A stretch of 64,000 bases of DNA from an uncultured candidatus Porisulfidus sp. (GCA_965200865.1 CBDAVG010000002.1:2130712-2194711); one strand, 5' to 3'. Shown: positions 56,239 through 59,548, counted from the first letter of the stretch. Translations and numbers: made by a program. Notes: a model not told the origin generated them from the letters alone.

Positions 56239-56964
56239 ATGATAGACAATAAACTCAATTATCCGCATTTGCTATTGTTGCAGTGGCTTATTTTCATTTT
56301 CGTTTTAACGTTCTTTGCATGGCTGGCATGGCAGCAAGGCGTAATACAGGATGTTCTAAGAACAGACCCAACTAAATTATCTCTGATAATCATGCTGATT
56401 TTTATCGTCGGCACCATCCATTGTGCAATACGCAGTGTATTCCTGTCTCGGCAGTTAAACGAATTAGGAAAAATCATCGATGCACCAAGCAAACTATATT
56501 TTGCCGACAACCAGTTATATTTTGATAAACAGTTGCTACCTTCGTCGCTGATAGCTGATTATTTGATCGGCATTTTTCGCTATCGACAATCGTTGTCCGA
56601 TCAAGCCGGCGCGCAGCAAGCATCCAAACTCGACGAAGTATTAAGCGAACACGCCAACGGCCCGCACGAAAGCGGATGGTTTTTTTCGCAGTTGTTAATT
56701 AAACTGGGTTTGTTAGGAACTGTTATTGGTTTTATCATCATGCTGAAATCGCTATCTAGTGCGTCGTTGGCTGATGTTTCACAAGTCTATGTGTTATTCA
56801 GTGATATGGCACAAGGTATGAGAGTAGCACTCAACACTACATTAACCGGATTGCTTGGTGCAATGTTGCTCGGACTTCAATACCTGATGTTAGATCGTGG
56901 TGCCGATCGCTTGCTATCAGGTGTAACCCATTTCGCCGAGACTTACACCAAGACGACCGAATAA
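56239..56964 (+). CDS. MotA/TolQ/ExbB-family proton-channel protein (short form)
   Basis: 'KLGLLGTVIGFI' and 'ALNTTLTGLLGAMLLGL' signatures; 241 aa. Confidence 0.7.
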   Translation: MIDNKLNYPHLLLLQWLIFIFVLTFFAWLAWQQGVIQDVLRTDPTKLSLIIMLIFIVGTIHCAIRSVFLSRQLNELGKIIDAPSKLYFADNQLYFDKQLLPSSLIADYLIGIFRYRQSLSDQAGAQQASKLDEVLSEHANGPHESGWFFSQLLIKLGLLGTVIGFIIMLKSLSSASLADVSQVYVLFSDMAQGMRVALNTTLTGLLGAMLLGLQYLMLDRGADRLLSGVTHFAETYTKTTE

Positions 56965-56980
56965 TAGTTCCCCCGACACG

Positions 56981-57592
56981 ATGGCTTTTAAGCGACAGGC
57001 ACGAACTTCACTTGCGATGGATCCTTTCACTGATCTGCTATTCAACGTATTGCTTGTATTTACCTTTTTGTTTATGATTGCGATTATTTTTTTAAATCCG
57101 ATATCTAAGGACGGCAATGTAGAATTGAAAGCTGAATACATCATCACGGTCAAATGGCCTGATCAAAGTCCAGATGATGTTGATACATGGGTAGAGGATC
57201 CGCAAGGAAATCTTGTTTGGTTTAATCATAACGAGGCTGGTTTTATGCATTTAGATCGCGACGATCGCGGCACAAGCAACGATACGATAATGGTTGACGG
57301 CAAAGAAGTCCTCAATCCCTTGAATCAAGAAATAGTAACGCTCAGAAAACCGATTCCGGGTGAATACACCGTCAATGTGCATTACTACAAATCCAACACC
57401 AAGAAACCAGTAACCGCCGAGGTGAGCGTGTCTAAAGTGAATCCGTGGCTTGAAGTTGTGTATTACGGTCAAGTGGAACTAGAAGCAACCAACTCGGAAC
57501 GCACCGCAGTACGGTTCAGGGTCAACGAAGACGGTAGCGTAGGCGAAATCAATACACTACCAAAGTCTTTGGTTACTGTGGAGCCGATATGA
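56981..57592 (+). CDS. single-pass membrane protein with periplasmic beta-sandwich-like domain (ExbD/TolR-position partner, not ExbD-like in sequence)
   Basis: TM 'LLFNVLLVFTFLFMIAIIFL' then soluble domain; translationally coupled to next gene. Confidence 0.45.
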   Translation: MAFKRQARTSLAMDPFTDLLFNVLLVFTFLFMIAIIFLNPISKDGNVELKAEYIITVKWPDQSPDDVDTWVEDPQGNLVWFNHNEAGFMHLDRDDRGTSNDTIMVDGKEVLNPLNQEIVTLRKPIPGEYTVNVHYYKSNTKKPVTAEVSVSKVNPWLEVVYYGQVELEATNSERTAVRFRVNEDGSVGEINTLPKSLVTVEPI

Positions 57593-58101
57593 ATACCGCA
57601 CTCATCGCACTCATCACCGCTTATGTTGCCCTTGCGGTTTTGCTTTTGGGGTTATGTCTTTATTCAAAATGGTCGGTATGGATTAAAGCGGGAGCAATCG
57701 TCTTAACTGGCTTTTTTTATTATGCAACCTATTTCTCTTTGCAAGGCTTGCTGGGGTGGCCAACACAATCTGATATGCCCAGTGAATTTATCCTATTGGC
57801 AGGCAAAGTAGAAGAACCCAACGAGAAGACCAAAGACGGTGGTGCAGTCTATCTGTGGGCATTGCCGCTGGATGAAGAGAAAATCAAAGGGATGCCTCGC
57901 TCATATAAAATACCGTATTCTAAGTCTCTGCACAACCAAGTCACCAAAGCCAATAAGAGGTTGCGTCGCGGTATTCCTCAAGTCGGCAAACTCGAAAACG
58001 CTATAGTGCCCAAGCCGGGCATAGGTCAGGCTTTGTTTGTGGAGACTATGCAGCGTATTGACATTTCCGACTTTCCCGACCCTGAATTACCCGACAAATG
58101 A
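57589..58101 (+). CDS. two-TM membrane protein, hypothetical
   Basis: ATGA overlaps on both sides (operon). Confidence 0.5.
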   Translation: MNTALIALITAYVALAVLLLGLCLYSKWSVWIKAGAIVLTGFFYYATYFSLQGLLGWPTQSDMPSEFILLAGKVEEPNEKTKDGGAVYLWALPLDEEKIKGMPRSYKIPYSKSLHNQVTKANKRLRRGIPQVGKLENAIVPKPGIGQALFVETMQRIDISDFPDPELPDK

Positions 58102-58814
58102 ATACCACGATGCTGCTTAGAATTTGCATAGTTATGATTGTTGCCGCGTGTATGGTCGCTTGTGGTCGTAGCGAAGAAATGTCAAGCAGCTATTTCCCGC
58201 TACAAGAAGGCTTGGAATGGAAGTATTGGGTTGTGAGTGAAACCCCCTATAAACGCAACGAGAGCGAACTACAAATCACTAACGCTGGACTTTGGGAATT
58301 GGGCAATCAGCAATATCACATCCGTAAAACGAATACCGGAAATTACTACTATATACAAGACCGCAACGACGGCATTGTGCGGTCATCAAAACGGACAATC
58401 GTTGAGCCTTCCCCTCGTTTTGGGATTGCTGAACGTTATGTAATCAAATATCCATTGCAAGCAGGAACGCAGTGGTCGTATAAAGCCAAGCCTTATCTAC
58501 TTGCTCGACATGCTCCTACCGCCAACGAGCTCAGAGAAATCGTTAAATATCAAATGGATTGGGAAATTGTGAGCAACGATGTAAAGCTATCGGTACCTGC
58601 AGGTGAGTTTGAAAATTGTCTTCATGTTCAAGGTAAAGCCTTGGTTGAAGTACCCCGAGCCTTGGGTGTTGCCACTGACCAAGTTTTGTTTGAAACCAAC
58701 GAGTGGTACGCACCGAATGTGGGGCTGGTAAAAGTCGTACATGAAGAAAAATCGTATTCTGACCAAGCATACGGTGGTTCCATAAGTTTGGTTTTAATGT
58801 CTTTTGAAAATTGA
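58098..58814 (+). CDS. lipoprotein, hypothetical
   Basis: lipobox 'MVAC'; 238 aa. Confidence 0.5.
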   Translation: MNTTMLLRICIVMIVAACMVACGRSEEMSSSYFPLQEGLEWKYWVVSETPYKRNESELQITNAGLWELGNQQYHIRKTNTGNYYYIQDRNDGIVRSSKRTIVEPSPRFGIAERYVIKYPLQAGTQWSYKAKPYLLARHAPTANELREIVKYQMDWEIVSNDVKLSVPAGEFENCLHVQGKALVEVPRALGVATDQVLFETNEWYAPNVGLVKVVHEEKSYSDQAYGGSISLVLMSFEN

Positions 58815-58825
58815 GAGGTTTAACT

Positions 58826-59548
58826 ATGAAAAAAACACTTTATCGTGTCGTAGTCTATACATTTTTGATGTTTGCTACGGCTTTCGTCACGCTTGCCAAT
58901 GCCGGCGATTTGAGTATTGAAAAAGCGAAGCAATATCTAGCAGGTTCTTTTCCTAACGCCGAGATTGACAGTCTAAAACCGGCAGCAATGCCTGGTGTCT
59001 ACGAGGTTGTCATCGAAGGGGGCGTTTATTATTTGACCGAAGATGGAAAATTTTTACTCGCCGGTTCGTTATACGACTTAGAAAATGGCAAAGACCTTAC
59101 CAAGCAGGCTAAGAATGAATTAAGGGGCAACATCGTCGCAATGCTTTCTGAACGAGAGGCGATTACTTACGCACCGGTGGAATATGAATACACAATCAAT
59201 GTGTTCAGTGATGTGGAATGTGCTTCGTGCCGTAATTTTCATAGCCAAATAGACCAAGTCAATGCGCTTGGCATACGAGTGCGCTATTTTATAACTCCGT
59301 TTCTTGGAGACACAGCATACCAGAAAGCGATTGGTGTTTGGTGTGCCGACGATCGCCCTGAGGCATTAGACAAAGCCAAACTGGGTATGGCTGTAGAGGA
59401 TAAACAATGCGACACTCCATTAGACGAGAATCTGCGCGTGGCAGAACTGCTCGGCATCAAAGGCACTCCTTCCTTTTTGCTTGAGAACGGTTCGTTACTA
59501 CAAGGTTATCGGACTCCCAAAGTGCTATTTGATGAAGTCAAAAAATAG
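58826..59548 (+). CDS. dsbC: thiol:disulfide interchange protein DsbC/DsbG family
   Basis: signal peptide; thioredoxin CxxC 'ECASC'; N-terminal dimerisation domain. Confidence 0.75.
   Translation: MKKTLYRVVVYTFLMFATAFVTLANAGDLSIEKAKQYLAGSFPNAEIDSLKPAAMPGVYEVVIEGGVYYLTEDGKFLLAGSLYDLENGKDLTKQAKNELRGNIVAMLSEREAITYAPVEYEYTINVFSDVECASCRNFHSQIDQVNALGIRVRYFITPFLGDTAYQKAIGVWCADDRPEALDKAKLGMAVEDKQCDTPLDENLRVAELLGIKGTPSFLLENGSLLQGYRTPKVLFDEVKK

Follow-up and report, generated by a model that had tools for sequence, protein, structure and literature searches.

In a 64,000-nucleotide stretch of DNA from an uncultured candidatus Porisulfidus sp. (hereafter the window), five genes on the plus strand, g1 to g5 (56239 to 59548), combine a short MotA/TolQ/ExbB-like protein with partners that are not those of the familiar proton-driven motors. 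We propose that the first three, g1-g2-g3, encode the core, in the inner membrane, of a motor that represents a new MotA/ExbB-type family, is driven by the proton motive force, is of the 5:2 type and serves periplasmic quinoprotein or lanthanide metabolism. We hold this proposal to be probable, with considerable room for doubt. We infer for the trio a 5:2 assembly, proton conduction, a membrane topology, an adaptor role of g3 and a link to lanthanides and pyrroloquinoline quinone (PQQ). To our knowledge, 5:2 motors of the MotA/ExbB type are the sole route by which energy of the inner membrane reaches the periplasm and outer membrane of Gram-negative bacteria. Ton, Tol, the flagellar stators, GldLM and Zorya are such families, and each of them, once understood, revealed a new cellular process. 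A reading made from the sequence alone (the sequence-only reading) had seen in g1 to g5 an undescribed envelope module driven by the proton motive force, with non-canonical partners. That inference is supported: g2 has no match to ExbD, and in the searchable literature, surveys of 5:2 motors included, we found no description of this motor family. What that reading had missed is an aspartate signature in the transmembrane (TM) helix of g2, the restriction of the DsbC gene to one lineage, and the link of the trio to accessory genes of PQQ- and lanthanide-dependent alcohol dehydrogenases.

A conserved trio of envelope genes

The five genes encode a divergent membrane protein of the MotA/TolQ/ExbB family (g1, 56239 to 56964, 241 amino acids), a single-pass protein that is the putative B subunit (g2, 56981 to 57592, 203 amino acids), a protein with two TM helices that completes the core trio (g3, 57589 to 58101, 170 amino acids), a predicted lipoprotein of a DUF3108-like family (g4, 58098 to 58814, 238 amino acids) and a periplasmic DsbC-like thiol:disulfide isomerase (g5, 58826 to 59548, 240 amino acids). 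The exact products of all five are called genes on a public 2.49-Mb contig, and comparison with the orthologues of the related locus L002 gives pN/pS ratios of 0.10 to 0.28, which is the mark of purifying selection; on both grounds we take g1 to g5 to be real, selected genes. The sequence-only reading had described 4-bp overlaps throughout the operon. ATGA overlaps of start and stop codons are present at the g2/g3 and g3/g4 junctions only, where they suggest coupled translation, whereas 16 bp separate g1 from g2 and 11 bp separate g4 from g5. For g5 we favour the ATG at 58826, which is preceded by a GAGAGG Shine-Dalgarno sequence and yields the 240-residue product of the public gene call; a TTG overlapping the g4 stop codon is for these reasons an unlikely start.

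The five genes are co-directional here. The unit of five is specific to one lineage and is not what is conserved. In 78 to 80 of 80 genome loci, and also in the metagenome loci long enough to judge, g1, g2 and g3 are adjacent in the same order and on the same strand (g3 directly follows g2 in 78 of the 80). The trio is joined by g4 in about 31 of the 80 loci (class A). In class B, represented by about 36 loci from genomes and 12 from metagenomes, the trio adjoins tilS/accA/dnaE. Genes for a YkuD L,D-transpeptidase and for a DUF302 protein lie upstream of it, and downstream is a protein of about 520 amino acids in which a TM helix links a periplasmic VWA domain to a cytoplasmic FHA domain; examples are found in L016-L080 (such as L052, 4105-8675), L085-L094, L103 and L107. 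Class C consists of the trio alone and comes from soil metagenomes and Devosia. From this class-wise gene content we conclude that the conserved unit is the g1-g2-g3 trio, with a variable accessory in fourth place and DsbC as a local addition. The recurrence of the gene order in other genomes, which the sequence-only reading had proposed as a check, is universal for the trio only.

The family is large. A word-indexed search returned 4167 homologues of g2, every one of them unnamed, and when HMMER was run exhaustively the hits fell into 2069 clusters (50% identity), of which 466 reached E <= 1e-30. More than 509 scanned species-representative genomes carry a g2 homologue, chiefly among the Gammaproteobacteria, where identity is about 60%, with some in Alpha- and Betaproteobacteria. 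The closest genome locus (L001), from a metagenome-assembled genome of 'candidatus Porisulfidus', has a g2 of 97% identity. One protein of 411 amino acids (P0168), an apparent fusion of the C-terminal half of a g1-like protein with a g2-like protein, was not used; its N-terminal half is of low complexity and seemingly out of frame, and we therefore judge it a probable assembly or frameshift artefact.

By its profile match, g1 is a very divergent member of the superfamily of MotA/TolQ/ExbB proton channels, in agreement with the sequence-only reading. It scores 36.7 bits against PF01618 (MotA_ExbB; cutoff 22.9, E 4.2e-9), the match covering residues 156-226 and hence the C-terminal TM pair. Hydropathy places hydrophobic segments near residues 11-29, 46-64 and 151-169; a fourth near 195-217 is weaker, was assigned by eye and falls short of the cut-off. 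Between the two TM pairs lies a loop of about 80 amino acids. Thirteen positions are invariant in 39 homologues (G146, W147, F148, K155, L158, T161, G164, F165, M190, G193, T200, T201 and G204), and the conserved motifs LLGT...G and ALxTT sit in the last two TM helices. When g1 was compared with E. coli ExbB and TolQ by hhalign, residues 155-225 were set opposite ExbB 142-205 (E 0.0012), with the motifs around T161, G164, T200/T201 and G204 opposite LFGT and LATA of ExbB TM2 and TM3; the E. coli sequences in this comparison and in that of g2 were entered by hand. A phmmer search with E. coli ExbB and TolQ did not match g1. In NCBIfam, TolQ (TIGR02796, E 0.02), MotA/MotP (E 0.03-0.27) and ExbB all remain below threshold. 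By analogy with the known motors, g1 is the putative pentameric A subunit.

The second protein, g2, has a basic N-terminus and, as the sequence-only reading had it, a single TM helix and a beta-sandwich domain: the AlphaFold2 model (pLDDT 89.4, pTM 0.73) shows a helix at 15-38 and an all-beta fold with strands from 53 to 191. The N-terminus would lie inside and the sandwich in the periplasm. The claim that g2 is not ExbD-like in sequence agrees with Pfam and with the periplasmic domain, but it does not extend to the TM helix, which opens with D14-P-F-T-D18-L-L-F-N and so carries P-F-x-D, the aspartate motif of the ExbD/TolR type. D18 does not vary among 18 homologues, and in a wider set of 70 diverse homologues, down to 30% identity, its conservation is at least 90%; it falls inside the predicted helix, as a protonatable acidic residue within the membrane would. 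The window protein has no match to PF02472 (ExbD/TolR) at E <= 1 and none to ExbD in NCBIfam or in a PDB profile search; among the 70 family members, one matches PF02472 (E 0.005). Pfam and NCBIfam give no OmpA/MotB match and no other family, and Foldseek and HMM searches of the PDB found no credible relative in fold or sequence. By analogy with the known motors, g2 is the putative dimeric B subunit.

The periplasmic domain of g2 has the pattern W-x5-DD-x-D-x-W-V-x-DP-x-G-N...G-E-Y-x-V-N-x-H-x-Y. Four of the 70 members align with DUF2135 and three with PPC, all below threshold, and the sub-threshold alignments from the PDB profile search point to the C-terminal jelly-roll of subtilisin-like proteases. 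These alignments suggest a domain that resembles PPC or such a jelly-roll. Within it, an acidic cluster (D66, D68, D94, D95 and E117) is invariant in the 70-homologue alignment and might bind Ca2+ in a structural role. All operon classes share the same invariant g2 residues.

For g3 the AlphaFold2 model (pLDDT 71.6) shows the two TM helices that the sequence-only reading had predicted. They span residues 3-25 and 30-51, are strongly conserved in an alignment of 47 sequences that includes Devosia (A3), and are followed by an invariant G-W-P. Beyond TM2 lie a small beta/alpha domain, a disordered linker of variable length and a conserved C-terminal tail with the motif F-x-D-x-P-x-P-x-L-P-x-K (LPDK). 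Since lysine and arginine are found only in the loop between the helices, the positive-inside rule would place the C-terminal part in the periplasm. No family in Pfam or NCBIfam matches g3, and the PDB gave no significant match, with OB-fold-like hits only at E > 0.1.

The lipoprotein g4 has a signal peptide and an L-x-A-C lipobox whose cysteine, C22, is at least 90% conserved, which bears out its assignment in the sequence-only reading. Of 26 family members, 23 match PF21347 (DUF3108-like) at E <= 0.01 (best E 4.8e-7), with the window protein itself at 19.1 bits under the cutoff of 27; the family profile finds 4fvs (E 5.9e-6) and 3fzx (E 7e-4) in the PDB. Two or three tandem g4 paralogues follow the trio in L054 (7141-9983), L058 (7039-10049) and L012 (7072-8646), and in L009 and L012 paralogues of a SoxYZ-like carrier follow g4. 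As for g5, a signal peptide, the DsbC_N dimerisation domain (PF10411, 1.1e-20), a thioredoxin fold (PF13098, 2.6e-15) and the motif C-A-S-C confirm that it belongs to the DsbC family. Its NCBIfam DsbC score of 142.7 bits is lower than the equivalog cutoff of 215, and we therefore call it DsbC-like and not a proven equivalog. It follows g4 only in the eight loci of the 80 that are closest to the window (L001-L008), and on this ground, and for want of periplasmic cysteine pairs in g2 to g4, we reject DsbC as an integral component of the motor. It may serve disulfide-containing proteins of the quinoprotein system.

Quinoprotein and lanthanide genes beside the trio

The proposed function of the trio comes from its neighbours. 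Genes of PQQ systems lie within 6 kb in 23 of 30 class A loci, compared with 6 of 53 others. Counted over the 123 loci with a near-full-length g2, such a neighbour is present in 43 of 64 loci outside class B and in 3 of 59 within it (Fisher p ~1e-13, a value that is only indicative and overstates the significance, because the loci are phylogenetically related). More persuasive than the p-value is how widely the association is spread: the genes are arranged in at least seven distinct ways, the g2 proteins come from four sequence clusters and the loci from two independent collections, with Gammaproteobacteria, Devosia and soil metagenomes all represented. In several loci the trio stands directly upstream of the dehydrogenase gene on the same strand.

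The neighbours include PQQ dehydrogenases of the methanol/ethanol family (TIGR03075), with 752.7 bits in L015 and slightly sub-threshold scores in the soil loci, SoxH-like metallohydrolases (TIGR04558), SoxYZ-like carriers (TIGR04557), CXXCW proteins (TIGR03865), MoxJ-like binding proteins, PedD-like pentapeptide proteins and further sets of the pedA1A2BC type. All neighbouring PQQ dehydrogenases that can be read at this position (9 open reading frames from genome loci and 15 from metagenome loci) have an aspartate two residues past the catalytic aspartate, in the variants D-Y-D, D-F-D and D-L-D. An aspartate at this position has been proposed, and experimentally supported, as diagnostic of lanthanide-dependent enzymes (10.1101/2020.02.25.964783). 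In P. putida, lanthanides enter through PedA1A2BC, and growth by way of the lanthanide enzyme PedH requires this importer; a similar system is present in M. extorquens, and for P. putida the passage of lanthanides across the outer membrane is described as unresolved (PMC12997753). In M. alcaliphilum, two 'MotA/TolQ/ExbB' genes, MEALZ_3990 and MEALZ_3991, are reported to be down-regulated with lanthanum relative to calcium (PMC6277846), and their membership in the present family is only a lead. The PedA1A2BC/LutABEF genes and the sets TIGR03861-03866 and TIGR04557-04559 thus share a neighbourhood with the trio. Neither these models nor any other NCBIfam model covers g1 to g4, and in the searchable literature the trio was not found as a listed part of the PQQ or lanthanide gene sets.

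The window itself has this neighbourhood. An ABC system of the pedA1A2BC/lutABEF type (50330 to 54529, minus strand) lies just upstream of g1 and is divergent from it. It comprises a PedA1-like substrate-binding protein (53258-54529; TIGR03863, score 452.3 against a cutoff of 414), a PedA2-like beta-propeller (52263-53261; TIGR03866, 482.1 against 287), an ATPase (51162-51884; TIGR03864, 312.5 against 302) and a permease (50330-51154; TIGR03861, 404.6 against 241). Some 15 kb upstream, on the minus strand, is a SoxYZ-like carrier of the kind associated with quinoprotein dehydrogenases (41132-41998; TIGR04557, 227.6 against 140).

The flanks of the operon in the window

The ped-like operon and g1 diverge from an intergenic region of 864 bp (55375 to 56238), which presumably holds both promoters; within it, we saw no convincing sigma-70 consensus close to g1. 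The same region and 62780-63700 are dense with dispersed repeats resembling repetitive extragenic palindromic (REP) sequences or miniature inverted-repeat transposable elements (MITE). Families D1-D4 and I1-I11 lie in 55375-56238. The repeat cores are GGGGCGGATTTATATATCCGCCCTA and ACTTTTTCAACAGYCCCATGTTAG...CCCCTACGG, and they occur in both orientations and as long-range inverted pairs. The first gene of the ped-like operon, facing g1, encodes a secreted protein of 279 amino acids, about 40 of which form a poly-Asp/Glu tract (54535 to 55374, minus strand). Pfam and NCBIfam do not recognise the protein, we found homologues in L001 and L002 only, and it could be a metal-binding envelope protein.

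Downstream, a GC-rich hairpin, AACCGCCGTTTGTTGCGGTT (59549 to 59568), directly follows the g5 stop codon and is separated by 183 nt from the next gene. It is a possible end of the operon; its function as a terminator on the plus strand is uncertain because the T-run sits on the minus-strand side only. Then come, on the plus strand, an SsuC/TauC-like ABC permease (59732-60508), the ABC ATPase paired with it (60508-61245) and a porin-like protein of 434 amino acids without family match, the three together spanning 59732-62748. A similar permease/ATPase pair adjoins ped-like genes and a PQQ dehydrogenase in the soil locus L098, and the pair and the porin-like gene may be part of the same metabolic island.

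Further away, a cytochrome c-550-like gene (45903-46433, plus strand) is situated between two tandem paralogous membrane transporters of 566 amino acids (44159-45859 and 46766-48466). Two large subtilisin-like proteases with P-domains (5893-8217 and 8481-11519, minus strand) carry leucine-rich repeats in one case and a He_PIG Ig-like domain in the other; such eukaryote-like repeats would fit a host-associated, sponge-symbiont lifestyle. A DUF772/DDE_Tnp_1_6 transposase of an insertion sequence is present in two copies (1073-2803 and 20711-22276, plus strand), with a GmrSD-like restriction gene (17870-19630) between them.

Proposed mechanism and relation to known motors

In the mechanism that we propose, g1 would form a channel-lining ring, by analogy with ExbB5-ExbD2, TolQ5-TolR2, MotA5-MotB2 and ZorA5-ZorB2. 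A dimer of g2 would be the central axle, with D18 of its TM helix as the protonatable residue, and would project the acidic PPC-like beta-sandwich in place of a domain that binds peptidoglycan, TonB or TolA. The third protein, g3, in this model an obligatory subunit, may be a periplasm-facing adaptor whose flexible linker reaches out and whose conserved tail docks a partner, so that the movement of the motor is relayed. The variable fourth gene probably specifies the output, which would be g4 in class A and the VWA-TM-FHA protein in class B. In classes A and C the trio, and the g4 class especially, would serve the periplasmic PQQ/lanthanide alcohol-dehydrogenase system, most likely through an energised step in the acquisition, handover or loading of metal or cofactor, or in enzyme maturation.

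Several results, in addition to the relatedness of the loci behind the Fisher test, weigh against this proposal. Class B makes up about half of the sampled loci and has no PQQ association, which implies a core function more general than the handling of lanthanides or PQQ. Within the 64-kb window there is no PQQ dehydrogenase. The hhalign comparison sets D18 of g2 opposite D25 of ExbD over only 17 columns at 3% probability, and with an ExbD sequence entered by hand. In the PDB, g1 has no match as a single sequence, and its 39-member profile gives nothing significant, the best hit being ZorA (8vvn_C, E 0.28). Metal binding by g2 is a conjecture, because its LDRDDxG loop is neither a canonical EF-hand nor DxDxDG. 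Finally, g4 has a single periplasmic cysteine and g2 and g3 have none, so that there are no pairs which would need DsbC.

The alternative closest to hand is a diverged Ton or Tol system, in which g1 would be ExbB or TolQ, g2 ExbD or TolR and g3 an analogue of TonB or TolA, energising a TonB-dependent receptor or a Pal-like lipoprotein encoded elsewhere. The order of an A subunit, an N-in single-pass B subunit with P-F-x-D, a membrane-anchored third protein directly downstream and then a lipoprotein mirrors exbB-exbD-tonB and tolQ-tolR-tolA...pal, the variable linker and conserved C-terminal element of g3 fit a TonB-like part, and like Ton the trio likely powers a periplasmic or outer-membrane process and is linked in the genome to the acquisition of a metal cofactor. 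Methylotrophs, moreover, take up lanthanides through the TonB-dependent receptor LutH (PMC12997753). However, unlike ExbD with its mixed alpha/beta domain, g2 has an all-beta sandwich and is, as said, all but invisible to the ExbD model, and unlike TonB, g3 has two TM helices and lacks the S-x3-H motif, the Pro-rich spacer or rod and the TonB_C domain, as it also lacks a TolA domain. In family scans, neither g3 and g4 nor the flanking genes showed a domain of TolA, TolB or an OmpA-like Pal; the family of g4 resembles DUF3108, in contrast to Pal, and no TonB-dependent receptor is nearby. Unlike ExbB, g1 seemingly spans the membrane four times and has a short loop in the cytoplasm; its similarity to TolQ is marginal, and it scores nearer the ZorA than the ExbB/TolQ models. 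Probing with E. coli ExbB, ExbD, TolQ, TolR and TonB gave no homologue, neither in the window nor among 83 related loci (about 12 kb each), with limited sensitivity in the case of TonB, and no TolA or OmpA-like gene was seen near any of these loci. The statement of the sequence-only reading that no TonB, TolA, MotB/OmpA-like or ZorB-like component is visible therefore stands, and its counter-case, a bona fide ExbD with a flanking TonB or TolA, is not what we find. We reject an ordinary Ton/Tol system, given the missing ExbD match and wrong fold of g2 and the lack of TonB, TolA and Pal, and regard a strongly diverged one as improbable.

The same comparison with ZorA raises the question of an anti-phage module like Zorya. 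The best non-generic matches of g1 are indeed ZorA models (PADLOC ZorA1, 1e-5; NCBIfam ZorA, E 0.0016), joined by the structure 8vvn already named, and it is the TM2-TM3 region that scores best. Each of these scores, though, falls far short of its family cut-off, and g1 with its 241 amino acids has no long ZorA tail. Neither does g2 have the peptidoglycan-binding domain of ZorB or of flagellar stators; g2 to g5 have no PADLOC match, no ZorC/D/E-like genes are present, and the trio is syntenic with housekeeping and metabolic genes and not with defence islands. The domain content effectively refutes a defence function, which we reject as hardly credible. A more serious competitor is a motor for general maintenance of the envelope or for signalling that is unrelated to quinoproteins, with the PQQ neighbourhood reflecting shared regulation or hitch-hiking. 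The large class B beside tilS/accA/dnaE speaks for it, as does the identity of the invariant g2 residues in all classes. On the other side, the association outside class B is strong: it recurs with many different gene arrangements, the g2 proteins concerned fall into divergent clusters, and the loci range from Gammaproteobacteria to Devosia and soil metagenomes. In several of them the trio immediately precedes the dehydrogenase gene on the same strand. We consider such a general motor unlikely, if worth keeping in mind, and retain a 5:2-type motor in the service of quinoprotein and lanthanide metabolism as the preferred reading.

For this preferred reading the type IX secretion motor offers an instructive parallel. 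GldL-GldM and PorL-PorM form a 5:2 motor whose single-pass B subunit carries periplasmic beta-rich domains that do not bind peptidoglycan. The idea of a B subunit that extends a beta-rich domain into the periplasm is common to g2 and GldM. In contrast to the periplasm-spanning rod of four domains in GldM, g2 has a single sandwich of about 150 amino acids; we detected no sequence relationship, the arrangement of charged residues in GldLM is different, and the trio belongs to Proteobacteria, GldLM to Bacteroidota.

We have thus described a large and highly conserved family that is without annotation beyond its A subunit. The neighbourhoods suggest an overlooked energised step in the pathway of lanthanide-dependent alcohol dehydrogenases, and the placement of the trio beside PQQ alcohol dehydrogenases of the lanthanide type and a PedA1A2BC/Lut importer leads to a concrete and testable hypothesis that touches on the route of lanthanides through the envelope. 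Since culturable carriers exist in Spectribacter, Hydrocarboniphaga (H. effusa), Plasticicumulans (P. acidivorans) and Devosia, genetics is feasible; in Spectribacter hydrogenoxidans or acetivorans and in Devosia sp. a PQQ alcohol dehydrogenase of the lanthanide type is adjacent. It is tempting to go further and to see in the trio a TonB-independent, proton-driven 'lanthanome' machine which captures, moves or loads lanthanide (or calcium or PQQ) for quinoprotein dehydrogenases, with the g2 sandwich as a head that binds metal or a partner and with g3 and g4 (or the VWA-FHA protein) as interchangeable output adaptors. We offer this extension as speculation that is doubtful as it stands. If it were true, the trio would fill the outer-membrane or periplasmic step by which bacteria without a LutH-type receptor acquire lanthanides.

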